This document shows positions 32,037-55,935 of a stretch of DNA of 64,000 nucleotides, piece by piece. The notes beneath the pieces were generated by a model, which was not told the DNA's origin, did not search any database, and worked only from the letters and a program-made list of their open reading frames with translations. The translations under genes were made by a program, and so were the position numbers. Positions within the stretch are counted from its first letter, which is position 1. Each line of letters opens with the position of its first letter. Source of the DNA: an uncultured Planctomycetota bacterium (GTDB lineage: Bacteria > Planctomycetota > Planctomycetia > Isosphaerales > Isosphaeraceae); assembly GCA_963823665.1 (NCBI GenBank), contig CAWGMQ010000010.1, positions 384,001 through 448,000 on the forward strand, given 5' to 3'.

Positions 32037-33038
32037 TTGGAGAACGATGGCGTGCTCTTACATTTCCATGCACCATGTTTTGATGGGATCGTGTCCGCGG
32101 TTCTCGCGGCTCACTGGTTCCGACGGGAGTTTAGTCGGTCCGAAGTGTGGTTCCGCGAGGTCAACTACGATCTCAAGGATGAGTGGCTACAGAATGCTTT
32201 GCCGCCAGATTCGGCAGTCGTGGATTTCCTGTATCATCCGGCGGCCGAGTGGTGGGCCGACCATCACGCGACAACGTTTCTCACTCCGGCGGCTGAGGCC
32301 GATTACCTGGAGCGCCGGTCAAGTCATTTCCTCGAGTACGACGCACGAGCGCCGTCGTGCGCCGACGTATTATGGAAGAGATTTGGCGACCAGGGCGAGC
32401 AGCTCAAAGAACTCGTGGACTGGGCGGGGGTCATTGACGCGGCCCGCTATCGCTCCGCTGAGCAGGCTATCTTCGCACGCGAGCCCGCACTCCGCCTGAG
32501 CGCGGCCCTCGAAGCCACCGCGTATCCCGGCTTTCCCACGCAGCTCGTGCAACGGTTGTTGGTTCGCACTCTCGGGGAGGTTGCCCAGGACCCGCTGGTT
32601 CTGAATCTGGCGAGGCGGTACGACGACTTGACCGAACGCGGCATGAATCGTTTCCGGGAACTGATTGCGAGAAACGACCCGGCCGGCGAAGTCCTTGTAC
32701 GCCTGGAACCGCCCGGCATTGTCGTCTTTGACCTCACCGAAACGGCAGGTTTGGCGTTTCCGCGCTACGCCCCATTCTTCTTCTTTCCCGAGGCTGCCTA
32801 TTCGGCGGGACTGACCCGAACGAGCCATTCCGCTAACCTGACGACGATGCGGAACCCTTGGCGCGACTTTCCGTGTGTTCACCTCGGCAATCTGTGTAAA
32901 CACTGGGGCGGGGGCGGACACTCCCGCGTCGGTTCAATCCACTTGAGCGGCGAGCGGCTTGCGGACGCGTCGGCGCGGTTAGCAGGCCTGGTTGAGGAGA
33001 TCCGCCGCTCTGGCTTATTCCCCGGAGATGACTCGTGA
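32037..33038 (+). CDS. DHH-family phosphoesterase
   Basis: HAPCFDG, VVDF, WWADHH, C-terminal GGGGH..VG (DHHA1-like). Confidence 0.8.
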   Translation: MENDGVLLHFHAPCFDGIVSAVLAAHWFRREFSRSEVWFREVNYDLKDEWLQNALPPDSAVVDFLYHPAAEWWADHHATTFLTPAAEADYLERRSSHFLEYDARAPSCADVLWKRFGDQGEQLKELVDWAGVIDAARYRSAEQAIFAREPALRLSAALEATAYPGFPTQLVQRLLVRTLGEVAQDPLVLNLARRYDDLTERGMNRFRELIARNDPAGEVLVRLEPPGIVVFDLTETAGLAFPRYAPFFFFPEAAYSAGLTRTSHSANLTTMRNPWRDFPCVHLGNLCKHWGGGGHSRVGSIHLSGERLADASARLAGLVEEIRRSGLFPGDDS

Positions 33039-35788
33039 GCGACCCCGTGAAACCACCCGCTGTGAGCGAGCCACGGCGCTATCGCCGGGATGTCGACTTC
33101 GTATTGCGCAAGTCAGACTTTTATCTGAATTCAATCAGCCCCAGTCGATTCAGCCGCTTTTTTGGGATCACAGGGTATCCGCCAGTCGTCGTCCCTCTGT
33201 TCCTCGGATCTTTATGGGTGATATGGCACGGTCCTTCCCTCTTCCGAGCGACCTCCGCTCATCTCGGTTTCCTGCTCATGGCTTCGCTCGGGCGTCTACT
33301 GGCGCCCTCGTTCGCTCGGCAGCGATCGTTGCTGCAGTACCTCGCGCTCCTGCTGTTCTTGTCCTGGCTACTCGTGTGGATCATTGCCGGGGATGCGACT
33401 GAAGCCGACGGAGGTTGCTATCGGCACGCGCCGGCCATCGTCATCGCTTTCAGCTCATGCGCGGCTGCCGTTGTCGCTCCACTCCTCGCGAAGCTTTTGA
33501 TCGGCTGGTTTCGAGGCCAGTTCGAGCGCAGGCAAGATCTGGTCGATTCCGACAATCCGGCGGCGACGCTACCCTGGCGGTTTTCGACGTTCGGCGAGCT
33601 CCTTCCCATCACTGAAATGTTCTTCATCCCGGTCAAGCCAAGATTTGCACTCGCAGGTTTTCTGGTCACTTTGTTACCGACTCTCACTCGTTATGCGCTG
33701 CCCATATGCTGGGCGGCGGCCGTTGCATGTATTCTCGTTCCGCAGCAATACATGCTCATCGGCATATGTGGAGCTGGCGCCGGTGGGATGTTCTTTTTTT
33801 CGGTCGGCAACCTTCTGGGTGAGCGTTTCCGCACCATGTTCGATAGAGTGCATCTTTACCTGTTCAGCGGCGCGCCGCTGGCTCTGTCTCTGGGCGTGAT
33901 CATACTGGCAGTCTGTCGCTGGGAAGAATTTCAGTATGTCTCTATACTCTTGAACTCAACGCCTGGGCCGTTCTTGATTCTGCTGTTGCTATCCAGTTAT
34001 TGCTGTTTATGGCAGTATCAGCTTTGGACTCGAGAGGTATTGGCCGAACATCTGCTGGGATTGCTTGAGTACCCCATCACGCTGCGGATGCGTGCTCGCG
34101 TCCTCTATCCATTTGATAAGAGCAATCAAGATCCTGCCTACGCTACCAACGCATTGGCTGAACATCGGTATGTTCAGGTCCATGGCGGAGGGCTGGCCAT
34201 CATGGGCGAGTACATCGACCACAGCGACGGCCAGACGCATACTTGCTGGGAGTCGTACGGACCCTTTGAATTCTTCGATACCTTGGTCTCCAGGGCCTTT
34301 CGCCGCACCGACGTCAAGCAGGCGGTCCTGCGTTATCGCTTGGCCTTGGACCTCTTGATGCTCGGGATCAACTCTTATCTGGCTGTGCTGAACCTGGCAC
34401 TCGTGTTCTCGTTGGGCGGAGCAATCTACTACTACCTGAATGTGATGGAGCCGGACCCTGCCGTGAAGCTGGTGCAGCAGGCACCTGGAGATCCCTCGCA
34501 GAAGACCGTATCCAAACTGTTGTTCGACAATTCGCCGAAACGGGTCCTCATGGTCGCGGCGTCCGGAGGTGGTTCGCGCGCGGCGCTCTACACCGCGTCA
34601 CTTCTTCATGGCCTTTCCCGCATCGGCGCCATCGATGACGTCAAGCTCACGAGCGGCGTTTCCGGCGGCGGCGCCGGTCTTGCTTACTTCGGGCTCCATC
34701 ACCAGGAGCTGTGTCAGAAGTCCGCTGATCAAGCCTGGAATCGAGCCTACGAGGCACTCGGCGCCCCGTTCATCGATGAGGTCGTGCGCGGCAGCATCGA
34801 GACGCGCATCATTCGTGGAGGGCAGCTCGGACTGCTGCTCACCGAGAGCTTCGAGCGACACATGGACGCCAAGAAGTCGAATACTGCGACGCTCGGAACA
34901 GCTCCCCTCGCGATGATATTCAACACGACTTTGTGCGGCGAAAGCGAGTGGCGTGATGGGCGCTGGTCTCCACCGAATGCGGAAGATGCCGGTGGACGCG
35001 TTCTGTTCACGAACCTCTATCCGCGCAGCCTTTTCCCGCACCCGGATAGGGCCAATCCGCAAACGATTGCCTGGCGATTCGAGGTGATCACCGATCCCGC
35101 TGTCCGCCTGACGCAGGCCGCCGCCGCCAACGCGAACTTTCCTCCGGTCTTCGGCAACCTGGGCGTGGCGATCCAGAGACAGCACCTGTTCTGGATAACC
35201 GACGGCGGGGCCGCCGACAACCGCGGCCTCGAATCGCTGTTGCTGGCCCTGAAATCCGCCCTCGTTGATGAAGCCAAGCAACCGAACGACGTTCGCCGCA
35301 AGCCCCCGGCGCTCTATCTGATCGTCGCGGAAGCATCAGGATTCAGTCTGGACTACTCGCATGATCAAGGTTTGGGCGCCAAGATGAATGCGTCACAACA
35401 GATCACCAATCAACTCATATTTGAGCTCCTCGATGAAATTCGCGATCTCTACGAAAAACTGGGGGCGGACCGAAGTGCCGTGCAATTTCACTACCTTGCC
35501 ATGCCGCGCGTGTATTGCACTCGCGGCGGGATTGCCACGCACTGGATGCTGCCAAGTTCCACGACCTTGGTGGATCCCCGGGAGCCAGATGCGACCCGCG
35601 CCATATCCGCACGCGTGACGCAGGATGAAATCGTCGAGTTGCTCAAAGAGTTGCATCCCGCCACCGACCCGCCTCCGCTCGGTGATCCGAAGCAGAACAT
35701 TGACCAGGTGCGAACGTGGGTCCGGCAGGATCCGCATGGCGAACGTTGGCGGCAACTTCGAAAAGCATTGACGAACGAACAAAAGTAG
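33035..35788 (+). CDS. Multi-pass membrane protein with a C-terminal patatin-like phospholipase domain
   Basis: Many N-terminal TM segments. ASGGGSRAA (oxyanion), GVSGG (nucleophile Ser), TDGG (catalytic Asp). GTGA overlap with the DHH gene. Confidence 0.8.
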   Translation: MSDPVKPPAVSEPRRYRRDVDFVLRKSDFYLNSISPSRFSRFFGITGYPPVVVPLFLGSLWVIWHGPSLFRATSAHLGFLLMASLGRLLAPSFARQRSLLQYLALLLFLSWLLVWIIAGDATEADGGCYRHAPAIVIAFSSCAAAVVAPLLAKLLIGWFRGQFERRQDLVDSDNPAATLPWRFSTFGELLPITEMFFIPVKPRFALAGFLVTLLPTLTRYALPICWAAAVACILVPQQYMLIGICGAGAGGMFFFSVGNLLGERFRTMFDRVHLYLFSGAPLALSLGVIILAVCRWEEFQYVSILLNSTPGPFLILLLLSSYCCLWQYQLWTREVLAEHLLGLLEYPITLRMRARVLYPFDKSNQDPAYATNALAEHRYVQVHGGGLAIMGEYIDHSDGQTHTCWESYGPFEFFDTLVSRAFRRTDVKQAVLRYRLALDLLMLGINSYLAVLNLALVFSLGGAIYYYLNVMEPDPAVKLVQQAPGDPSQKTVSKLLFDNSPKRVLMVAASGGGSRAALYTASLLHGLSRIGAIDDVKLTSGVSGGGAGLAYFGLHHQELCQKSADQAWNRAYEALGAPFIDEVVRGSIETRIIRGGQLGLLLTESFERHMDAKKSNTATLGTAPLAMIFNTTLCGESEWRDGRWSPPNAEDAGGRVLFTNLYPRSLFPHPDRANPQTIAWRFEVITDPAVRLTQAAAANANFPPVFGNLGVAIQRQHLFWITDGGAADNRGLESLLLALKSALVDEAKQPNDVRRKPPALYLIVAEASGFSLDYSHDQGLGAKMNASQQITNQLIFELLDEIRDLYEKLGADRSAVQFHYLAMPRVYCTRGGIATHWMLPSSTTLVDPREPDATRAISARVTQDEIVELLKELHPATDPPPLGDPKQNIDQVRTWVRQDPHGERWRQLRKALTNEQK

Positions 35789-38975: not shown

Positions 38976-40240
38976 TCAAAAGCGAAGGCCGATCACGTTC
39001 CAGTAGATCATGTACGGGACAAAGAGGACCAAGCAAAGGACATCAAGTGAGAACCGGATTTTTCTCGCTGCCGTCCAGCCGTGGTTGCGGGGAGTCCTGG
39101 CAAGCACGATCAGCAGAGCGACGGTCGCCAGCGTGGAAACGGTCCCCAGCAGTGGAACGAACAGCAGGACGGAAGGACAGCTCGGGTGCAGTTGGTCAAG
39201 CACCAACAATGCGGTGATCGAAAACGTGACAAGAATCAGAAAGTTCAGGGCGGCGATCGCGCGTTTCAAGTTCACAACCCTGTTGGATGCTGGTAAAGCC
39301 ACACTTTGCCGACGGCGGAATAAGCGGGTCAAAGAGCACCGGACACTTGCGATCGCGTTGGCACTGAAACTGATGAGGAAGAGAATCCATAGTGCTGCCT
39401 GGACTGTTCCGTTGCCATACCATCGCAGGCTTTCGTAGCTTGCCAACCTGGGAAGAATCCCTGCTTCCGGGGCGACGCCCTCCTGTTTCATTTTGCCGAT
39501 CTCCGAAGGGCGATCGATCGCGCTCCAGGCCCAGTCGGTCATCGTTAGTAGAACATCATGCCCTCGGCGACGGATGCCCCCACGACAATGACGAATCGAA
39601 TGTCCTCGGATCGAGACGTCGCGGCGGCGCCGATGTAGGCACCCTGACTGAGCCCCAAGCTGCCAATCTGTGATTTTTCAATCTCGTGGCGCTGCTTCAC
39701 GAAGGCGACAGCGGAAAGAGCGTCATTGACCAGGTTCTCGTAGGGCTCATAACTCTCGTAAACGCCGCCGGACTGACCCGTTCCGCGCTTGTCGTAGATC
39801 AATGCGGCAATACCCCGGCTCGCAAAATACCCACCAATCTCACGGTACGGCTCGCGAGTCTGTGGGCCCGCGCCATGGACAAAGACGACGGCCGGAACAG
39901 GAGTTTGGCTTCTCGGCAAAAGCAGACTTCCGGCAAGCTTGACGGCCTGGTTGTGGAACTCGACGGAGTGCTCTTCGAACCTGGATTTCGGCCCGATTTC
40001 ATCAGCATGGGTCGCCGGATCTGTCACTCCTATCACAAACGCGACGACAGGTATCGCGGCAGCCATCGTTGGTAGGTGGTGGCGCCGCCAGGACGAACCG
40101 ATCCGGGACACTAAGTCCGCCATAGGCGCCTCGGTAGCTCGAACGGATACGGTTGGCGGGGTGGAACACGGGACGACCTGGCCCATCAGTTTCCCCCCCC
40201 GATCTGTTGCGATCTTGACTCCGTTGCTTGGTCGATGCAA
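38976..40240 (-). pseudogene. Split/truncated alpha/beta hydrolase with a C-terminal membrane segment
   Basis: 39545..40240 has VFVHGAG, YDKRGTG and GLSQG, then stops before the Asp/His of the triad. 38976..39542 is a hydrophobic TM tail. Confidence 0.6.
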
Positions 40241-42350: not shown

Positions 42351-43369
42351 ATGCCTTATATCAACGTGCTCTTCTGGAACATCGAGAACTACGGCACTTC
42401 CAAGCACAAGGCGTCGAACGGGGGCAAGGAGCTTTACGCCTTCATCGTCGAGGTTCTCAAGCGGAACGAGGTGCACATCGCAGGCTTCGCCGAAATCCGC
42501 TCGAATCTCGGCGCAGATCGGCGCTGATCTCAAGCAGAAGCTCAACACCGCAATTTCCGGCTCATCGTGGGAGTACAAGGATAGCGCCCAGTTCGTGCCG
42601 AAACGCCTGGAGCAGTACCTGTTCCTGTACGACGAGAGAAAAGTCAAGGCCTACGGGGCCACCAAGTTCCAGCATGTGTTCAAAGACCCTGCCGATCAGT
42701 CGGTGCTGGGCTTCCCGCGGAAGACGAAGGACCGGCCGCCGTACCTGGGCTACTTCGAGACGCAGGACGCCAAGAAGAAGAAGATCGTGGTCGGGATCAT
42801 GCACTCGCCCAACCCATCGGACAAGAAGGGCGTCAAAGAAGCGCCGCAGAAGATCGCCTTGATCGACGAGTTGAAGTCAGGCGACGTCTGCGTCGTCATG
42901 GGCGACTTCAACGTCAAGGCGGTGTCCGACCACAGATCGCCTAATTCGGTCGGCGAAGCCGCCTTCCTGAACCTCGTCAACAAGGGATTCGAGCAGCGCC
43001 TGCTTGACGATGTTCAGTCCAGCCTGATCAACAAGAAAATGGCTTTTGCCGGGATGGAATATGACGATTGCCGGAGCCAGCCGTACGACCAAATCTTCCT
43101 GTACGCCGCCCACGACCGGCCGTTTCACCGTGGGCGATGACGACGACGGGATTGACGCTTTGATCGACAACTGTTCAACCATCGCCCCCGCGGGCTCGAC
43201 CACGTCCGCGAATTCTGACACGTATCTCATGGAGCCTTTGAGGGCGATCCAAAACATCAATTATGGCGAGAGCGAAACTGAGTATGACAACGTCGAGGAT
43301 GCGTTCGTCGCTTTTCGCGGTTATGTGAGCGACCACTACCCGGTTTTCATCAAGCTAACGTACCCGTGA
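42351..43369 (+). CDS. Endonuclease/exonuclease/phosphatase (DNase I-like) protein; two apparent frameshifts (~42510, ~43110)
   Basis: Joined frames give LFWNIEN, GFAEI, EQYLFLY, RPPY, MHSP, VMGDFN, YDQIF and VSDHYPV, the full EEP motif set. Confidence 0.8.
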
Positions 43370-43425
43370 ACGTCCGGTTGTCGAGGAGAGTTTCCGCCTG
43401 CTCCGCAACCGATCACGAGGGAGCC

Positions 43426-44498
43426 ATGCGCCCGATCAGAACCGACCCGGCCCCGGCCACGTACAGCGAGCAGGCTCAGCTCGACCGCCGGGTCGTGCTC
43501 GTCGAAGGAACCGGGAGCGGTAATGCAGGCTCGAAGAGGCAAAGGAAGTCACAATCAGCTCGCGACTCGACGCGATTGAGACGGCGATCGCCCAGCCTCG
43601 TTCTCGCGACGAAGATATTCCGAATATGGCGAAGGACCTCACCGGATACGAGGCGGCCACGCGTCCCCTCATCACGCAGACGGGCCCCTATTGTGCTTAC
43701 TGTGAGGCACGCGTGGCGTCGGACCTGCGAGCTGAGCCGGTGCTGCCTGTCACCGCGTATCCAAAGAAACTGTTCGCCTACGACCGCCTGCTCCTCGCCT
43801 GCCCGGCGTGCCGGAACGCGCGGCGCCACCGGCCTGCTCGCAACGAAGGCCAATCCGACCTCGAGCTGCTGAACCCCGCGCGATTCGCCTGGCCCCATCG
43901 GTACTGGCAAAGCCTTCACGACGGCGACCACTTGCCGTTTTGCTATCGGCTCGACTTCGAAACCCCGGCCGGCGGAACTGCCTTGCCCCCGGAGGACGAT
44001 CTGGTTCACGAGTACCGCTCCGGTCGCGTGTGGGTCGAGCGGTCCGAATCCCTGGACCGCGGCGCAGTGATGCTGGGTCCGCCACCGGATCAGTTCGAGG
44101 ACGACGACGACCTCGCAGATCGGCCGCGACCCAAAGCGATTGCCGTGCGGATCATGCCGACGGATCCCAACTCGGCCCTCGGTCGCGGCGTGGCCGCAAT
44201 CATCGACCTGTTCAAACTCAACGATAAACTGACCGACCCGTCCGGCGCGCCAAACGCCCTCGACCGTCGCGTCGAGCTCCGCACGATGGCTTATGTCCGC
44301 GCCGTCGACTTTCGGTCCCGCCTGTCCTCAGCCCAGCAGCGCGGCGAAACCAATCTCGAGGCACGGATCAAGGAGCTCGTGAAGGACGCAGCCCAGGCAA
44401 CCGGATTCTGGGGGGTGTGGATGAGCGTCTTCCGCATCGATCACGGCTGGCTCGACGACCTGCTGCCCGGGACTGCGCTGCGTACGTGGGCGCCCTGA
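43426..44498 (+). CDS. HNH-type zinc-binding protein 1, apparently catalytically degenerate; one apparent frameshift ~43560
   Basis: MRPI start after GAGGGAG. GPYCAYCE, LLLACPAC, FAWP, LDRRVELR, ATGFWGVW. AEPV where EH(I/V) is expected. Confidence 0.7.
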
Positions 44499-44579
44499 CC
44501 AGGGCCAGGAACCCGACGGTTCGCGCGATCGCCCGGAGTGATGCATGGTCCAGGTTCTCTCAACACACGAGACTTCCCG

Positions 44580-45776
44580 ATGCGACCCATCATGAAGGTG
44601 CCCATGGGGCTGCTATTGAAGTCGGAGACCCGCGACGCATTGCGCCACATGTTGCTCGAGTCGGTGGGCCCCTACTGCGCCTACTGCGAGTCGCCGATCG
44701 GGACCGATTTTCCCGCCTCGGTCCCAGACCCTGAGTTGCCAGATCAATCGATCCCCTCGGTACGCGTCTCGTGGGCGGCGCCCTTGAATCCGGTCGACGT
44801 CCATCAGAAGAAGGTCCGGGGAAGGTTGAGCTCGCGGCGGTTCTCCGCGGCCTGGGTCAATCAGCACGTCGCCTGTGCCGCGTGTGCGCGGGCGAAGGGG
44901 GACGAGCCGGGGATGGTGGCGGCCTACCGGCGGCTCGCAACGACCAATGACCAAAAGTTCCAAGAACTGGCGCTCAAGCTGGGCAACCGGCGTTCGTACA
45001 CTGAGGACGACTTCGACGACTTGTTCATCGCCGCCCTGCAGTCGTGGGTTTGGCCCGACACATCGAGCGATGAGGACGGCATCATCGTGCGCGTGGGTGA
45101 CCCGACCTACGACCTGTTTACCTACAGGGAAGAAACCGTGAGCCAGGTGGATCTCGCCGGACGGCGACTGGTGCGAGGGGGCCGGCTGCCCGCGGGCGCC
45201 AACCAGCCGTGCGCCGGCGTGTGGGTCATCCCGAATGATTCGTATATAAACAATCAAATGGACCACGATGACCTGCGCGATCGCGTGGTGTCGACGATCC
45301 TCGGGTTCGACCTGAACCGGTTCGACCCGACGTCGCTCGACCGCCGCGTCGAGAACCGCACTCTGGCGCTTCCTGTCGTCAGACGCAGTCTCGACCGCCT
45401 CAGGGATGTGGTGAGGTCGACCCCGAGGGACCAGACCGATCGCGACAGCGATCTCGACCATGTAAACGTAGAGGTTTTCGCCGGTGCGCTGCGCGAGACG
45501 ATCCGTGCCACCGGCTTCTGGACCATGTGGGCACAGGAGTTCCAGAAGGGGATCATGAGCCTCGCTGATGATGTCTGGCGGCTCTACACCGTCCCTGCGC
45601 GCCACCGCCTCCTGTACCGCATCTTCGTGCAATACGAGGAAGACAACCGCACCCTGTTCAACCGGCAAGCGTACCGGCCAACGAAGGCTTCCCCGATCCC
45701 GCGCGACGTACCAAAGGACGAGATCGTGTTCCAGATGGTGCTGGCCGGCACCGATCCGGAACGCCTCGACTTCTGA
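44580..45776 (+). CDS. HNH-type zinc-binding protein 2 (paralog of the previous gene)
   Basis: MRPI start. GPYCAYCE, VACAACARAKG, WVWPD, LDRRVENR, ATGFWTMW. Confidence 0.75.
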   Translation: MRPIMKVPMGLLLKSETRDALRHMLLESVGPYCAYCESPIGTDFPASVPDPELPDQSIPSVRVSWAAPLNPVDVHQKKVRGRLSSRRFSAAWVNQHVACAACARAKGDEPGMVAAYRRLATTNDQKFQELALKLGNRRSYTEDDFDDLFIAALQSWVWPDTSSDEDGIIVRVGDPTYDLFTYREETVSQVDLAGRRLVRGGRLPAGANQPCAGVWVIPNDSYINNQMDHDDLRDRVVSTILGFDLNRFDPTSLDRRVENRTLALPVVRRSLDRLRDVVRSTPRDQTDRDSDLDHVNVEVFAGALRETIRATGFWTMWAQEFQKGIMSLADDVWRLYTVPARHRLLYRIFVQYEEDNRTLFNRQAYRPTKASPIPRDVPKDEIVFQMVLAGTDPERLDF

Positions 45777-45788
45777 GCGGAACAATCC

Positions 45789-48700
45789 ATGGCCGATATC
45801 GACCCGTCCAGCCCGTTGCTCCTCGCGCTTCGCAACCGCCTGAGGGCCAAGGGCACCGCTTTCGAACTCGGTCCCGAAGTCGTCCAGTCGCGCAATATCA
45901 CCTCCCAGTTCCGTGTACTACTTGGTGCTGCCGGCGACAAGCTCGGCGTGCGGGACGCGGCCCCGCCCGCCACCACGGCGGCCTCGGTAACGCTTACGGC
46001 CACGCTCGACCTGGCAGGCGTCACCGGCGGGCAAGGGACCTTCGTGTTCACCGTGCGGCGGTCGGTCTTACAGCTCGACCTGACGTATCGAATGGGCACG
46101 CGCACGATTGCCCAGCTCAAGGCCGCGAAGCTCGTCCCCGACGACATCTTCAAGGCGGGCGCGGCGGCGCGAGCACCTGGGCAGACAGTCTGGTCGCGAT
46201 CGACGGGGCCGTGCTCCAGCTCGACACCGCCGGGCGTTCGCTGACCGTGACGAGCGAAGGCAACGGACCGACCTGGTCCGTGGTTGTCCTTCCCGGCGTC
46301 ACGCTCCCTGCGGTGAAGCCCGACTTCCGGGTGTTCTCCGACCACGCCGCACGGCCAAACCGATATGTGCCCCGCGTGACGGCGAGGATCGACCTCGGTC
46401 TGGCCGGGAGGCTGCCACTGCCGGTCTACCTCCAACTTCCCTCCGGCTACGCCCCCTGGGAGCTCGGGCTTACCGAAAGCTGGTACGTCGGCAACATCAC
46501 CGACCTCGCCAAGCTCTTCGCCGGCCGGAGCCCGGAGCTGCCGGACGGTCTGGTGAGCCTCGGCCAGGTCACGCTCGAATCGTTCACGATGACCCATCCG
46601 CCGGGGGTCGATATCTGGACCTGGGACCTCGCCGCCAAGCTCGGCCGCGTTCCGGACCAGCCCGGCTCGAACGAGCCGCGCTGGTCGATCATCAAGGACA
46701 AGTTCGAGCTCGAAGAGCTCCGCGCCTGCGCTGCACGTCGCCGTGATCGGGACCGGATCTGCTTCGAAAGCGATCACATCCGGATCGGTGTCGGCGAAAT
46801 TCAAGCTCGACACGCTCGACCCGATCGACGCCATGCTCAGCATCCCCGGCTCCGACGGTGGCTGGACACTCGTCGCCACCACGAAGCAATCGCTCCGACT
46901 GGAGCAGACGGCCCCGCTCCTCGGTGGCGACCAGAATGCCCTGAAGTCGAGCGTGGACACGGTTGGGAGCACCGGCGGGTTCACGCTCGAACGGCTGGAG
47001 ATCTCGTTCAAGCCGGCTTCGGACCCTTCGCAGTTCGTGCTCTCGCGGCTCGTGATCGCGGCCTCGGTCACGTCGTGGACGGTGCCACACCAGAATTGGT
47101 TCCGGGTGAAGGGCATTTCAGCACGGCTCTTGGTTCTGAACCCGACCCGCGCCGACAGCGTTATTACCGGTGAGCTGTGCGCGATTCTGGCGCTGGGCTC
47201 TGTCGAGGCTGGCGTCCTGGCGTCGTTCGACCGCGACGCCGTCTGGAAGCTGAGGCTTGCCGCGCGGGCGGTGAACCTCGCCGGGCTGAGCGACCTGTCG
47301 GACCTCGTTTCCGAACCCACGATCAAGGGCGACGACAACCTTCCAGCCGAGCTCCCGACCTCCGGCGGCTTCCGCATGGGGGCGTTCGGCTTCAGCTACG
47401 ACAGCCGGAATGAATACTTCCCGGAGATCGCCTTCGCCCTCCAGAGCGAGCTCGGCTGGACGATCGTCCCCGACGTGCTCGAGCTGGGCGGCATCGACAT
47501 CGCGATCGAGGTCAAGCAGACAAGTAAGAACGCCAAGCCGGAGGTCAGCGGACATGTGAGCGGTTCGTTGACCCTCGCCGGGGTCCCGATTCGGCTGAGC
47601 GCCGACAAGCCGAAACTGGGGGGCCCCTGGACGTTAACCGGCCGACTCGAACGCGAGGTCAAGATCGACTTCAACACCGTCCTGCGCGAGCAGGTGGCGC
47701 CCGACTACTCAATCCCCGCCGGCTACCTTCCCACGTCCCTGTCGATCCGCGCAGCCGAGGTCACGCTCGTCCCCTCGACGCGTGAATTGGAGTTCACCGG
47801 CGCCGCGATGATTGAATGGCCGTTCAACCTCGGCGCGGCGCCGTTTCAGGTCAAGTCGCTGGGCGGAGCGATCCGCCGCGCCGTGGGCCCCGGGGGAATG
47901 CAGACCAGCGGCGAGCTGTACGGCACGATCGCCTTGAGCAACAGCCTCGAGGGCGACGCGACCGTTGCGCTTGGAACGGCGGGCATCGACACGGTCGTCC
48001 AGGTCACGCTGCGGAGCACCGCCGACTCGTCGCAGTTCCGGGTTGGCGCGGTCGCCGAGAGTCTGAGCGGCACGGGAGCGAACGCCCCGGCCGCGTTCGC
48101 AGCTCTGGTGCCGGCGGCCTTGCCGACGGAACTGACCGGCGTCGCCGTATCCATCAATTTGACAAAACGCGTTTACCTCGCCACGGGAACGCTGAAGAAC
48201 TTCGGGTGGGCCTACTTCTTGTACCAGGGAGCGGACGCGCCGCGTCCGCCGGGGGGAGGAGGTACGGGACCTGCGGCAGGGGCCGCGACTGCCACGGGCG
48301 GCTCGGGCTACCTGTTCGCGGCCGGCCTGGGAGACAATTTCAAGTTCGAAAACCTGCTTTCGGGGCTGAAGGGCGTGGACGAAGTGATCTCCGTGAAGGA
48401 GGCGATGCTCGCCGTGTACGCGGCGCCGGGCGGAGCTTTGGAAACGCTGAAGCAAGCGGTCCGTCCATTCGAGAACCGATCCGCGCCGATCCGCTGGCCG
48501 CTGCCCGAAGAGTCTCCGCTCGGGACGGACCTCCCGAGAGAGCGCGGGTTCGTGCTCACCGCCGCGATCGACATGCGCCCGGAGAAGAACAGAGACAACC
48601 TCTTCGAAAAAGTACTTCGGATCGGAACTCTGGGCGCCTCCGACGTGCGGCTGCTGGCGCTCGTCAACCGCGACGCGCCGGACCAGAGCGTCTACAGCGT

Positions 48701-51700
48701 GAGCCTGCACGACATCACGATTCTCCAGAATATGATCACGCTGACCGGCGTGGTGGCGACGTTCCGCCCCGCGAAGAAGGCCGAGCTGACGCTGGCGGTC
48801 GCGATTCTGGTCGAGAAGATCTTCGACAATAACTACCGCTTCCAGGGCGAGCTGAAGCTGACTTCGACCAATATGATTGGCCGGATCAGCCTGCTTGCCA
48901 CCGGCACGCAGAAAGTGACCGAACCGTTCAAGCTGCCCAATATCACGATCGACAGGCTCGAGCTCGGCGTGGAACGGACCTTCGGGGCCCGGGTCAACGG
49001 CCAGGTGACGGACCCGGCGACGCGGTTCGCCCTGTGGGGCAAGGTGCTCTTGGGCGCTCCACCCGCGACGGGGGCGCAAGATCAACGCCCTGCCTTCGAA
49101 GCCAAGCTCGCCCTCGCACAGGGCAAGCCGGCGCTTTTCAGCGTCGCCCTCACCAGCAATCTCGACGTGGGCGCCCTGCTGGCGCAGTGCTTCACGGGCG
49201 ACGCCAGGAACTGGCCGGCCGATTTCATCAATATCGTCTTTCTTAATGGCAGCCGCGTCTATTACTTCAGTGAAGTCGAAGGCTCGGAAGCCTGGAAGAC
49301 CGAGCCCGCCGTAGGGAACGTGCCGGCCGTCACGTACAAGCCGGGCTTCAACGTCGACGCACATATCGTGCTCAAGCTGGTCGAGGATATCCCGCTCCAC
49401 TTCACGCTCGAGTCGGTGCCCGGCGCCGAGGGCAAGCCGGGGGGCGTGAAGGCGACCGTGGCGCCGGAGACGCCCATCAACCTGTTGTTCATCGAGCTCG
49501 CGAGCGTCAGGCTCGAAGGTGATAAGTATGTCGGCGGCCCGACCCTCCAGTTTGCCACCAACCCCAAGACCTTCGGCTTCACGACGGGCGTGAACTTCTT
49601 CGGCAAGGGCTTGCTCGCCGCCGACGTCGGCATCACGCGCAATGCCGCGAACGACGACACCGTGGTCAACGGGTGGATTCAGCCTGCGTTGCAACCCGAC
49701 TTCGGCAATCTGTCTTTCAAGTTCACCTATACGCGCAAGGCGGATGGTAGCAGCAGCTTTTCGATCAGCGACTGGCCGTCGTTCGATGTCGCGCAAAAGA
49801 TCATCGAAATCGCGGCTCTGATCCAGACTGCGGCCGGATCGAAGGTCGGTTGCGAAGCCCTCGCCGAACTGGTCGACAAGGCGCTCTTCAAGACCAAGTA
49901 CTCGGTTACTCCCTCGGCCAAGATGGTGGGCGACAAACTGGAATTCTCGCTCACGGTCTCCTGCTCCATGTCGATCGGGGACGACCCCGCGTTCCTGAAA
50001 TGCGACCTGCCCGAGATCAAAGTCCAGATCCCGAAGAACACGGGTTTCTCTGAGTTGCTGAACAAGTTCATCGACGGGATCCGCCAGGCCGGCCCGGATT
50101 TCGTGCAAGACCTCCTGCGGAGCCCTGATAAGATCGCGCTGTTCCTGGCGATGATGTACAAAGACGAGGCGCTCGGGATCGCGCTCAAGCTGGTGTGCCG
50201 ATCGCGCGTGAATGCGGGGGTGGCCGCGGCCGCTGGCGCGGCGGCCAAGGCGTTCGCGGACGCGATCGCCGCGGGGCTCGCATTCACCGCGGCTATTGGC
50301 GCGGCGACCGGGGTGATCGCGTCCACGCTCGCGAGCCAGGGGGACCAGCAGGGCAGCGATCAGAAGCCGGGCAAACCAACGATGCGCAGCTTCAGCTTTC
50401 ACGGCGCCACCTTCCAGGGCGGTTGGACCGCCGCCGGCGGTGCCGCCAAGTATGAGTTCAAAGTGGCCGGCCCGCAGTTTGACCCGCCGCCGGCGCCGGC
50501 CGTTGCGGCGCTCGGGAGCTCAGTGCCCGCCAATCTCGCCACGCTCGCCGGCACCTACTCTGGCTCCGTCCGCGGCGTGCGTGGTGCGGACAATGGCGAC
50601 TGGAGCGTCCCGTTGACGCTCACCCTGGAGACGCTCGCCACGCCCATCGTCCGGCTCTCGTACGACGGGACGGCGGATCTCTTGGCCGAGTGGACGCCGC
50701 TGGTGGGCGGCCCCTACACGTACGAATTGAGGCTCTTCCGCGACGGGGCTCAGCTCACTCCGCAGGACCGCACCGCCCAGACTCCCGGCTCGCAGCGCTG
50801 GCCCCTGGCCAATCTGGCAGCCGGGTCATATACGGTGCAGCTCGCCGTGAAGGGCGGCGACGGCACGCGCCTCCCGGGCGCCTGGTCGGGGCCGAGCAAC
50901 ACCGTCGTCAAGCTGGCGCCGCCAGTCGTCCAGTCGCTCTCCTACGCCAACGACCGGGTGACGGCAAGCTGGACCGCCGAGCCAATCGCGTCGGCGTTTG
51001 AAGCGCAGCTCGTCGTCGACGGCGGGACCGGCGCGGCCGCGACGCCGGCGTCGCTCTCCGGGTTGAGCGCCCAGTTCGACTCGGCGCCGCTGGCCGTTGC
51101 CACCTATCGTGCGCAGGCCCGGGCCACGGCCGCGACCTTCCCTGCGATCAGCAAAACGACCGCCGCGCCAAGCGACTGGTCGGCGCCCTCCACCCGCAGC
51201 ATCGCGAAGCTGCCGCCGACGGACGTCTGGTCGGTGGGCGTCGACCCTTACGAGGAGAGGATTGGCGCACTGCTGCGTGACGTGCCAGGGGCCGACCTCC
51301 TCCTCGCCCGACTACACGTCGAGGGTGCCGACCCGGGGCCAGCGGGTGGGGCCGAGCCGCCGACCAGGTCCGTGGGATTGCAGATCCCCGCCACCTGGCA
51401 GATCGGGCCCGCTCGCGTCGAGGGGCGCGCGGCACGCTCCGACGGATCCGCGATTGCCAGCAAGTGGACCGCAAAGACGTTGGTCCGGGTTCACGCTCCG
51501 GTGCCTGGCGCGATTTCCTTCGACCATAACACGGGGACCGCCCGTTTGACGTTCTTTTTGGTCCCTCCTCCTCCGACGAACCTCTCCGACCTTCCGAGCC
51601 GTCCGATCCTTCCTACCGCTCCGCCCGCCGCGCCCCCGCAGCGGTATTTGGTCCGGTTCTTCGTTGGCACGCCCGCGCGGCCGTTCGAGCGGATCTCCGA

Positions 51701-54447
51701 GTTCGGCGACTCGACTGACATGGGCCCGATGAGTGTTTCGATCAACGTCGTCGACTTACCCGCCGGGCCGGTGCTGGCGCGGACCTGCACGGTTTCCGAC
51801 GGCCCCGAGCTGGTGCGGAGCGTCTGGCTCGACGTCGCGCCGGCTCTCACGAAACTGGGAATGGCCGCCGTGGTGCAAGCCAACTATGGCATCCAGGCCG
51901 GCGTCATCGGCGTCACGCTCCAGCAGGCGGAAGGACCGGTGTCTGAGTACCAGGCTCAATTGATCGCGATCAATCGCGGGCCAGTGGGGCCGGTGGGCCG
52001 CTCGTCTTCCCCCGTGGTCTCAATCGACTTGCCGGAACTCGAGGCCGGCGCCTACACGCTGCGCGCGGCCAACCTCGACTCTTCCCGAGGTGATCGATGG
52101 CGACTGGACCGAATGGCACCCCGCGACACCCTTCAACGTGCCGCCGCCGCCCACGAACCTGGCCCTGGCGTGGGACCCTTCGCAGCCTCAGCACGGCGCT
52201 GTGGTGGTGACCTTCGACTCCGGCGCGGAGGTCCTTCAGGCGCAACTGGTAGTAAACGGCGTGCCGACTGGCGGTTCGGCCGGACTCTATGTGGCGCCGG
52301 GGGATGCGCACCGGCTGACGATGAATCTACCTCGGCCGGAACACCTGGCGGCGGGCGCCATCGGCGTGCGCGTGCGGTCCGCCGGAAACCCTCCGTTCAC
52401 GATTTCCGGCGCCTGGGTGAAGTCGCCCTCCACCCTTGCGAACCCGGGACCGGCCACCGTCTTGAGCGCTCGATATGACCCGGCGTCGCAGGGCGTCCGA
52501 GTCACTCTCCGGCCACCGAACGGAGTCGTGTCGGAGTACCAGGCTCAGCTCGTCGCGATCGATCGCGGGCCGGTCGAACCAGTGGGCCACTCATCCACGA
52601 CGGAGGTGTTGATGAGTGTGGCGCGCCTGACGCCCGGCAACTACACGGTGCGGGCACGTGCGACCTCGTCGATGGATGGCGACTGGAGTTCGTGGCTCCC
52701 CGCCACGCCACTCACGATGCCCCCGGCGCCGGGCCACGTGGACCTGGCATGGAACCATGAGTTCGACGCCGTCGTCGTGAGCTTCGACCGCGCTCCCGGC
52801 GTTCCGACTTTCGAAGGGCAACTTCTGATCGGTGGTGTTGCGGTCGGCAATCCCGTCGGCATTGGCATGGCGCCTGGGGATCCGGCCCGGGGCACAGTGA
52901 ACATCCCTCTGCCCGACACCCTGCCCGACAACCTATCTGCCGGCGCCCTAGGCGCGTGGGTGCGCTCGAGCGGACCCACCCCGCAGACGATTCCCGGCGT
53001 TTGGCTGTCGTCGCCGAACACGCTCACTCGGCTTCCGGCGTATGGTCAGCCGAGCCTCCGACACGAGAGCGACTCGGCCGAACTCGAGGCCGTCTGGCCG
53101 ACGGCGGCGAGCGCAGTGCGGCTCGAGGTGCAACTTCTTGCGGGCCAGACTCCATTCGGGTGGAAGATGGTCGTCGAATCGCCGCGGGAGCCCGGGCCGA
53201 TTCGCGCCTCGTTCAAATTTGGCGACACTCTCCCGGGCGGCCCGGTCCGGGTACGGTTCCGCCTGGTCTCGGCTGACGGGCAGGGCGTTCCCGGTCCGTG
53301 GACGATCTCGGACGCGCACATTACTCGCCTCCATCCCCCGAGCATTGCCGGAACGTCGTGCGTAGACGGGATCTTGACTGTGAACGTGAATGTGACCCCC
53401 GACCCCGGCATGTCGCGCTGCGGACTGGAGCTTTCGAGCGGGTTCCTCCCGCCGGGCTTCTTCTACTCGGGACTGCCGGTCTCCTTCGCGATCGACACGG
53501 CCAACGGTTTTCCGGGCGATTACTGGCCGAAAGTTTGGGCGATCGGTCGGAAAGACGTCGCGATCAACAGTATCACCGTGGACGGCGCCTCGGTTGTGAC
53601 CCTGCTGGGAAAAACGTCGATCAAGGGGGCCAGATTCGGTTCCGGCAAGATCTACCTCTCCTGGAACAAGGTCGAAGGGCCCTTCCCCGGTACTGCCGGC
53701 GTGGGGCCGCCCGACGCCTACGTGGTGAGGGTCGTTGACGGGAACGGTGGGTCGGTCGCGGGGCACCGTGTCGAGGCAGCGGGCGGCGTGCCGCCAGCCA
53801 CCGCAGCCGCATTTGATGCCGCGCTTCAGCCAGGTGCCGTCTATCGGGCTTCGGTGCAGCTTGTCGGCCGGTCCGGCTCGGGGCACTGGAGCGATCCGGC
53901 GGATCTGCTCGCGTTCGACCCGGCGGATGTGACGGTGCTCGACCCGCCGGTGGGGCTGAACTTTACCTACGAGAACCCGAACGCGCGGGCGCGCTGGACG
54001 GCCCCGCCGATCGCAGGCGCTGTGAGCTATGAGCTGGAGCTGCGCGACGGTGATGGCCGGCCGGTGATGCAAGGCATAGGCGTTCCATCCGGGACGGAGG
54101 CCCTGATCTATTACTTTTCCTTCGCGCAGGTCGACCTGCCCTATACGGGAGTCGTCCGCACGAAGATCGGCACGGGCGCAAGCCGCTGGAGCAGACCCGC
54201 GGTGCTCTGGAACCCGGCGAGCCCGTCATATGCGCTGGCGCAAGGCCTGCGAGGGCAGCGGGCTGAGGACGTCGCCATTCAGATCCGGGGTGCTTACCCG
54301 TTCATTACCGCCACCGCGACGGCCCACATCGTCTTGTACTTGTTCCCGGATTCGGCTCGCAACGTGATCGAGGAGGCGCTGACGCGGGCCTCATTTTTCC
54401 TGGGCCAGATCTATTCGGCGATCGCCGCTGTGTTCCCCGGCAACTGA
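45789..54447 (+). CDS. Giant (~2,900 aa) protein: beta-rich repeat N-half, helical/Ala-rich hydrophobic segment, FN3-like repeats, helical C-cap; three apparent frameshifts
   Basis: ORFs 45789..46244, 46211..(46727), 46743..(52065) and 52090..54447 chain by single shifts in GC/GCGC runs. FN3-like W...Y...W-S patterns follow ~50360. No signal peptide. Confidence 0.75.
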
Positions 54448-54754: not shown

Positions 54755-54914
54755 GAGTCCGTTCATCATCTTCACTTTCACTTGTGTTTCGGCGCGTGCC
54801 GTGCAGAGAATTGACGCAGGACAAGTGATTCCGTACTCGCTCCTCGACGCATCGATTATGTCACCGATCAGAATGTGCCTGTGTCTGGAATCCCCCAGCT
54901 TCGGGTCGGGGGCC

Positions 54915-55935
54915 ATGGCAAGGCGATTAGATCGCGCCGAGCCGGTGCTTCTTCATCCCCAGAGAACCGTGCCGCGCCGGCAACGTCTGTTCGCGCCGGG
55001 ATCGACGCGCTCGAGGCTCGAGTGCAGCTCAACGGGGCTTCGGGCGGGGTTCAGATCGGCGTCGATCAAACCACGGCGAATCTCCTGTACCAGGACTTCA
55101 TGAACAATTCGCAGGTCCCTTCCGGCAATACCGGCAACGTCGCCGCGCGCATCGCGGGCACGCTCAGTCCGCAGTATCTTGCGGCCGTCCAGGAAAAGAT
55201 CGACGACCTGCGCTGGACGGCCGGCGATCCAGGAACGATCACCCTTCGCAGGCCAGCGTCAGCGTGACTCAGAACGGCGTGCCGCAACCCGTGACGATCG
55301 AGGACGCGGAGGCAGCCGGTCAGGGTATCGTAGGGACGGCGATCACTTGGATCCTGCCGTCCACCCCCACCGGAGAGCAGCCGGCCACGTACTCGGTGAC
55401 GATCAGCGGCATTCTGAATGCGAACCATCAGCCGCTCCCGGACATCTCCTACACGACAACGACGTTCGTTCCGACGCCCACCACGGCGACCTTGACCTCG
55501 CAGGTGGAATTCCTGGCGCCGACAAACCAGACCGCCTTCGGGTCCGCGACGTCGACGGTCACTTTGGCGCGGAGCTTGAGCGTCGCTGCGCCGCTTTCGG
55601 TGATCGTCCAGGGAAACGGAGTTTCCCAGGAGGTTGACTTTGCCGCGGGCCAGGCCTACGCCACCGCCATCTTGCCGACCGGATCATTCACCCTGACCGA
55701 CCCCCAGGGCGGCGTCGTCGCACCTGGCGGAGGCACGACCCAGGTCGTGCCCTCGAACGCCGGCGGTCGTCGGCTAGGGGAGGAGACGAGACCCAATCTT
55801 TCAAGTGGGTTCCGGCGAAAGCCAGGGACAGGTGACTCGCACCGGTTCGCATCCCGCGATTGCTCCCTTGCGGCCGATGCCGCGCGCAGCAGGCGCCGTA
55901 GCACGCGCGGCAAGCAATCGTGCGCGCTTGGGTAG
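54915..55935 (+). pseudogene. Frameshifted planctomycete surface protein with an LEPR-XLL-type leader
   Basis: Basic N-terminus ...RRQRLFAPG shifts frame to IDALEARVQL. Downstream Thr-rich beta/Calx-like segment (VDFAAGQAYATA). At least two shifts. Confidence 0.5.

Follow-up and report, generated by a model that had tools for sequence, protein, structure and literature searches.

Polymorphic toxins that contain HINT domains, such as Rhs and CdiA-like proteins, have variable C-termini. The cytolethal distending toxin CdtABC pairs a DNase I-like enzyme with binding subunits and acts in the nucleus, as described in the excerpts drawn on here. According to the part of the source used here, the umbrella toxins of Streptomyces (UmbABC) carry polymorphic lectin tips and employ a catalytically dead enzyme fold as an adaptor (PMC11062931). 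We analyzed a stretch of 64,000 nucleotides from an uncultured Planctomycetota bacterium (assembly GCA_963823665.1, contig CAWGMQ010000010.1, positions 384,001 to 448,000), referred to as the window. It holds a cassette of four genes, which encode an EEP nuclease, two HNH-fold proteins (HNH1 and HNH2) and a giant protein of about 2,900 amino acids (aa). This cassette is a real, conserved and apparently undescribed system. Judged by sequence comparison, EEP-HNH1-HNH2 is one of at least two interchangeable modules upstream of such giants; the other, a metallo-β-lactamase (MBL) followed by an acidic protein that we call AD, was the commoner in our sample.

The EEP-HNH1-HNH2-giant cassette

Three-frame translation and the GC content of third codon positions (GC3) placed all four genes on the plus strand, with gaps of 56, 81 and 12 bp: EEP (42351..43369, about 335 aa, no signal peptide), HNH1 (43426..44498), HNH2 (44580..45776, 398 aa) and the giant (45789..54447, about 2,890 codons, leaderless). 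Scanning metagenomes with an alignment of HNH2 yielded 102 matching stretches, three of which were confirmed (L016, L017 and L018). All three carry the four genes intact and in the same order, which rules out a chance adjacency. The lengths of EEP, HNH1, HNH2 and the giant are 330, 380, 400 and 2822 aa in L016, and 328, 377, 393 and 3138 aa in L017 and L018; the latter two loci are near-identical, so that two independent loci stand beside the window. HPS91441.1 and HPS91442.1, both named Methanothrix sp., belong to the clusters that come nearest to the HNH proteins of L017. L017 thus appears Methanothrix-like, so the cassette would span a bacterium and an archaeon. Neither an ATPase nor a reverse transcriptase (RT) gene was found within the window cassette or beside the cassette in L016, L017 and L018.

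Six frame breaks split three of the four genes, near 42515 and 43106 in EEP, near 43523 in HNH1, and near 46165, 46725 and 52063 in the giant; HNH2 is intact. GC3 tracks the coding frame across the breaks. At each of the six positions, at least one short-read contig from four other runs (depth 2 to 5.5, no single piece covering the whole locus) differed from the window in such a way that the break vanished, and the breaks are therefore likely assembly errors. True pseudogenization of the cassette was rejected in view of these contigs and the intact homologs. One short-read contig carried a further indel near 50343, at a place where the window shows no break. The neighboring open reading frames at 54875-55935 and 38976-40240 also look frame-broken, which fits long-read assembly errors along the contig.

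The EEP protein is, from its sequence, a DNase I-like nuclease, and DNA hydrolysis is its predicted activity. The motifs WNI, E, MHSP, GDFN, YDQ and SDH are all present, and intact EEP homologs matched Pfam PF03372 above the cut-off. When a three-sequence profile was compared with the PDB, the best match was DNase gamma (E 2e-8), followed by DNase I. The NCBIfam model for the membrane nuclease MnuA was matched with an E value of 5e-10, which is below its cut-off.

Both HNH proteins matched the PADLOC PtuB model PDLC00315 (HNH1, E 6e-23; HNH2, E 3e-8) and found each other in cross-searches, HNH2 being the more diverged of the two. The protein collection held 12 homologs of HNH1 and 9 of HNH2 (41-93%). 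According to the alignment, HNH1 keeps both zinc knuckles and has lost the catalytic His and Asn. The EH motif was absent from all 12 HNH1 homologs (one of them a fragment that lacks this region), and the nine HNH2 sequences had neither EH nor CxxCN. As controls we used 11 PtuB-like proteins of the same class, which all had EH and N..CxxCN; a P-loop ATPase adjoins 10 of the 11. The residue lost in the HNH proteins corresponds, in an alignment, to the His of PtuB proteins with solved structures. Retron defense is abolished by a His-to-Ala change in the HNH protein, as reported in the excerpt of PMC12475279 used here, and the alignment suggests that this is the same His. Because the EH and Asn are missing and a His so placed is needed for retron defense, HNH1 and HNH2 are very probably dead nucleases that retain their zinc knuckles. 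An earlier note on this DNA, made from the letters alone, had described four tightly co-oriented genes, an EEP enzyme with all catalytic motifs, and two mutually paralogous, non-catalytic Zn-HNH-fold proteins lacking an adjacent ATPase or RT; each of these points was upheld by the analyses above. The linkage of the giant to EEP and HNH genes, which the note had put forward for a neighborhood check, recurred in all three metagenome loci, from a bacterium and a Methanothrix-like archaeon.

The N-terminal extension of HNH1 is acidic and basic, and contains a basic cluster that resembles a monopartite nuclear localization signal (NLS). The cluster occurred in 9 of 10 full-length HNH1 homologs, compared with a mean of 0.3 and a maximum of 3 in 10 for shuffled sequences, 2 of 149 giants and 1 of 11 PtuB controls; the pattern used for these counts was written after the alignment had been seen. 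This origin of the pattern, the lack of the cluster in L016 HNH1 and the fact that basic clusters can also bind DNA count against the delivery function proposed below. In the window, the cluster of HNH1 is located at the frame break. Searching five giant-bearing whole genomes with the HNH1 profile returned just weak partial HNH matches, in two of them.

A related pair of genes was seen elsewhere (L068:12289-14197, genome G047, contig C30), in which an intact PtuB-like HNH protein (364 aa, with a basic cluster) is followed by a degenerate one that matched the PtuB model with an E value of 2.6e-11; there is no ATPase, and no giant within 19.9 kb. This pair could be a nuclease and its dead inhibitor paralog, and could represent an ancestor-like state of HNH1 and HNH2.

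The giant protein and its upstream modules

Searches with the giant body found 209 clusters at E≤1e-3, 104 of them at ≤1e-30, and the homolog counts below rest on the best 150 of the 209. The family ranges over Actinomycetota, Bacteroidota, Pseudomonadota, Cyanobacteria, Bacillota, probably Planctomycetota, and Methanothrix, with named members in Variovorax, Salipiger, Pseudoalteromonas, Okeania, Actinokineospora and Streptosporangiaceae. Its common layout is a beta body, a conserved core, Ala-rich hydrophobic helices, an FN3 stalk and a variable tip. In the window giant, the beta body (46782..50040) consists of repeats of about 125 aa, each of five to six strands and a helical loop, that form a continuous up-and-down sheet and end in the family core. 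AlphaFold2 gave this sheet with a predicted local distance difference test (pLDDT) of 75 and a predicted template modeling score (pTM) of 0.54, and of 88 and 0.81, respectively, for the N-terminal half; confidence was low at the hydrophobic helices. These follow at 50046..50330, first an amphipathic and then an Ala/Gly-rich hydrophobic part with an invariant Cys, and are candidates for membrane insertion. Their Kyte-Doolittle value is 1.9 (over 19 residues); among 117 homologs with a complete core it is at least 1.6 in 101, and in 91 no other stretch of the protein is as hydrophobic as these helices. The remainder (50360..54447) is an FN3 repeat stalk, which shows internal repeats and matches Pfam fn3 (E 1.6e-10), with a short unassigned C-terminal tip. 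An N-terminal hydrophobic stretch was present in 1 of the 117 homologs, which resembles a fragment. Thus, the earlier description of a protein of about 2,900 aa without signal peptide, with a beta-rich body, a hydrophobic segment and an FN3 tail, agrees with what we found.

The tips of homologs carry jacalin, tectonin, FBA, F5/8C, LamG, Kelch, PQQ-type propeller or RCC1 domains (8 proteins and 15 locus tails). Of 126 homologs, 20 have between one and five HINT domains placed directly behind the hydrophobic helices; L050:10634-16864 and P0102 contain tandem arrays with as many as five. Other variations on the layout include a short class of 1,100 to 1,600 aa with the core, often HINT, and FN3 only (P0105-P0119 and similar, Okeania, Pseudoalteromonas), and P0080, a protein of 6,400 aa in which one beta-body segment occurs 17 times in tandem ahead of a core-like region. 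Another short-class giant, L055:8534-12571, has no MBL, AD, EEP or HNH gene adjoining.

The giant body has no Pfam model. As modeled, it is also without a close solved relative, as fold searches returned just beta-barrels at an rmsd of 8 to 24 Å or short sheet matches. No solved repeating beta-groove (RBG) protein was among the top 50 fold-search rows, such a fold being still possible, and viral structures gave no meaningful match. Pfam searches of the window giant pieces and of eight whole homologs returned no match to PF20248 (DUF6603); the nearest named cluster in the ESM Atlas (0.77, 24% DUF6603) is a weak lead.

To find giants in genomes we used a DNA motif of the core, which fits 32 of 150 homologs and misses the L016/L017 clade; all genome locus counts carry this bias. 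The motif marked 44 loci, of which 20 were true giants and 24 were discarded as chance or too short. No EEP or HNH gene was found at any of the 20. Instead, 16 had a ComEC-like MBL hydrolase and an AD protein of about 450 aa directly upstream of the giant, in Streptomyces, Embleya, Yinghuangia, Nonomuraea, Frankia, Parafrankia, Streptosporangiaceae, Elarobacter, Mucilaginibacter, Olivibacter, Negadavirga and a metagenome-assembled Cyclobacteriaceae genome. Since the motif is biased, the ratio of 16 MBL-type to 3 EEP-type loci does not reflect a natural frequency. As for the remaining loci, the contig of L039 ends with a fragment of AD, and L055 and L063 lack MBL and AD. Two more actinobacterial loci had AD and a giant without MBL, and one cyanobacterial locus had neither.

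Some loci depart from these layouts. In L067:6874-12517 the start of an MBL runs straight into the middle of the beta body of a giant that is broken further on, an arrangement suggestive of a deletion remnant. In L080:14404-17233 and L081:14292-17317, which have no MBL, two co-oriented genes of about 460 to 500 aa with mutually similar starts come after the giant; a possible role for them is that of an alternative downstream cargo. In the cyanobacterial L082:1933-8715, the giant is seemingly divided among several genes, and small co-oriented genes come after them.

The HxHxDH motif was found in 15 of the 16 MBLs, the one miss being cut by the contig end. Their best PDB matches were competence protein/ComEC (E 0.003-0.03, weak), Lactamase_B was above the cut-off in two of four, and the defense models LmuA, Avs1a and RTasMBL were matched weakly. 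Basic clusters occurred in 5 of 14 MBLs. AD proteins have no Pfam family common to the members and no Atlas match, and a profile comparison with the HNH proteins gave no similarity (probability 0.2%).

The N-terminal segment of the giant (45789..47680) is specific to the cassette type. The first ~600 residues of the window giant scored 102 to 171 bits per segment against two giants of the EEP type (L016 and L017), versus at most 27 to 80 bits against 19 giants of the MBL/AD type. From about residue 900 on, the order is reversed (0 to 57 bits versus medians of 39 to 82). A tree of the cores (FastTree, midpoint root) grouped the window giant with the actinobacterial giants of the MBL type in one large clade, far away from those of L016 and L017. 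Regions ahead of the core share at most 30 bits between the two types, and 40 to 470 bits in most pairs within the MBL type. By these comparisons, the window giant is a mosaic, with an EEP-type N-terminus on a core closer to the MBL type. This is most simply explained by a transfer of enzyme, adaptors and giant N-terminus, in one block, onto another core. The comparisons show co-inheritance of module type and giant N-terminus, and suggest, on the basis of three EEP-type giants, that this segment may be the docking site for the module. The window giant begins about 190 residues after the starts of L016, L017 and P0011 and is without their leading FN3-like domains; a number of MBL-type giants have a Laminin_B-like domain at their start instead.

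Distribution was patchy. The giant was found in 0 of 120 other genomes of the source's family, in 2 of 300 others sampled from an actinobacterial class and in 1 of 250 in another genome sample. We found no second copy in the source's own genome (16.46 Mb, 12 contigs). The giant core had no plasmid match, and none of five viral motif matches was real. In the window, the cassette is flanked by ordinary metabolic genes (a beta-lactamase-like hydrolase, an amine oxidase, DUF2277 and a 2-hydroxyacid dehydrogenase). A DUF1559/N-methyl gene, a type of gene that points to Planctomycetota, lies near it, and 33035-35788 encodes a 917-aa protein with a C-terminal patatin domain.

Proposed function and alternative explanations

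The loci share a gene grammar: a cargo-like phosphodiesterase gene, one or more adaptor-like genes, then the giant. Nuclease-type folds occupy both cargo slots, with their motifs intact (DNase I-like, and ComEC-like by a weak match). We propose, with about an even chance of being right, that the cassette encodes a modular, leaderless nuclease-delivery particle for offensive conflict, in which cargo/adaptor and tip modules are exchangeable on the giant carrier. This proposal is favored by the recurrent gene order of both module types, the nuclease-type cargo folds, the mosaic build of the window giant, the polymorphic tips, the position of HINT behind the helices, the NLS-like cluster of HNH1 and the patchy distribution. 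The dead HNH proteins would attach the DNase to the giant's N-terminal segment and may hold it silent. The complex would exit the cell without Sec or Tat, perhaps through lysis. The tip would then bind a target glycan, the hydrophobic helices would enter the membrane, the beta-sheet would shield or guide the cargo, and the NLS-like cluster of HNH1 could take the DNase to a eukaryotic nucleus.

Several observations weigh against this proposal. Export is left unexplained, since none of the four genes has a signal peptide and the cassette contains no secretion gene. Besides the window, there are only two independent EEP-type loci. No immunity gene was identified. The giants of L055, L063 and L082 stand without an upstream module. 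Many tails, including that of the window, gave FN3 alone or no match, and no lectin is recognized at the window tip. The NLS-like cluster was absent from all 14 AD proteins, and three Bacteroidota MBLs have apparent signal peptides where their giants have none.

A more specific version of delivery, tentative and rather doubtful as it stands, is a new class of eukaryote-directed genotoxins in environmental bacteria and a methanogenic archaeon. The giant would supply glycan targeting, membrane insertion and a beta-sheet conduit, a domesticated, dead anti-phage HNH protein would serve as the NLS-bearing escort of the DNase, and recombination would swap cargo-plus-adaptor modules and lectin tips independently.

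The combination of an FN3 stalk and a lectin tip is typical of adhesins. The giant might accordingly be a surface-displayed or released scaffold that holds a nuclease or phosphodiesterase on glycan surfaces and digests extracellular DNA or phosphoesters for nutrition or biofilm remodeling, its helices anchored in the producer's membrane and nothing entering other cells. The resemblance of EEP to MnuA, below cut-off as it is, and the three MBLs with signal peptides fit such a scaffold. However, it leaves the two conserved dead HNH proteins and the NLS-like cluster without a use and does not sit well with leaderless giants (a hydrophobic stretch at the N-terminus occurs in 1 of 117), and we consider it unlikely.

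The absence of leaders from every part would also suit an intracellular anti-phage or anti-plasmid system, where the giant is a membrane-bound sensor, the dead HNH proteins replace a PtuA-bound regulator, and EEP or MBL acts as the abortive-infection effector. The descent of the HNH proteins from Septu/retron PtuB, the weak matches of the MBLs to defense models and the patchy distribution point the same way. Yet ATPase and RT are absent, neither the giant nor AD matched any PADLOC model, the glycan-binding tips and HINT domains point outward, and the flanks are metabolic genes and no defense island; this explanation is quite improbable.

The EEP and MBL superfamilies include phospholipases, and the giant might be a bridge-like lipid-transfer (RBG/AsmA-like) protein whose enzymes, as lipid phosphodiesterases, extract or remodel the membrane lipid of a bound cell. 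Its repeat of five to six antiparallel strands and a loop resembles the RBG unit as described in the part of PMC10345924 used here, but it lacks an N-terminal membrane helix and any AsmA or Chorein Pfam match, occurs in monoderms and an archaeon, and has an EEP closest to DNase I, which makes this very unlikely.

The regular gene grammar of the giant family lends itself to direct tests. Should the system prove to be a delivery particle, enzymes would have a new route into cells, defense nucleases a new use as inactive adaptors, and archaea possibly a weapon against eukaryotes. Under the other explanations, too, two unknown protein families (the giant body and AD) gain partners and a hypothesis.

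Comparison with known systems

The earlier note knew of no named system of this composition, and our results concur, with no PADLOC model for the giant or AD and no description of the system found in the open-licence literature; a mention in a comparative-genomics supplement is still possible. HNH1 and HNH2 share the MRP, CxxC, WP, DRR and GFW layout of the PtuAB proteins of Septu and retron I-A and match PtuB models. Here, however, the tandem HNH proteins lie between a DNase and a giant. The missing His, Asn, PtuA ATPase and RT rule out membership in either system.

The PT-HINT-like domains of giant homologs and their variable C-termini recall the HINT-containing polymorphic toxins, but here HINT stands ahead of an FN3/lectin stalk and not of a toxin domain. 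No downstream immunity-gene pattern was seen in the giant loci listed. With the RBG proteins AsmA, TamB and VPS13, in so far as the excerpt of PMC10345924 covers them, the giant, as modeled, shares a long open beta-sheet of similar-sized repeats, whereas it has no N-terminal anchor and no Chorein-N or AsmA match, and it has an FN3/lectin tail, HINT domains and nuclease neighbors. A Foldseek search of the giant matched LPD-3 weakly (E 0.016, TM 0.07).

Like UmbABC, as characterized in the available part of PMC11062931, these loci combine polymorphic lectin tips with a dead enzyme fold in an adaptor-like role. They differ in lacking ALF repeats, a coiled-coil stalk and a TAT signal, and in having the putative cargo as a separate upstream gene and not as a C-terminal domain; no ALF or trypsin Pfam match was found in the window pieces, homologs or locus tails searched, and no TAT motif in the 14 N-termini checked. 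With CdtABC, as far as the excerpts reach, the cassette shares a DNase I-like enzyme with partner proteins, EEP and CdtB being compared by their common fold only. No CdtA or CdtC gene lies beside EEP, whose neighbors are the two HNH-fold genes and the giant, and no CDT Pfam match was obtained. Moreover, a single leaderless protein of 2,900 aa here combines binding and stalk, the NLS-like motif is on a separate pseudo-nuclease, and the hosts are environmental. By analogy, the proposed working of the system is most like that of an AB-type or umbrella-like toxin, with a carrier unrelated to either.

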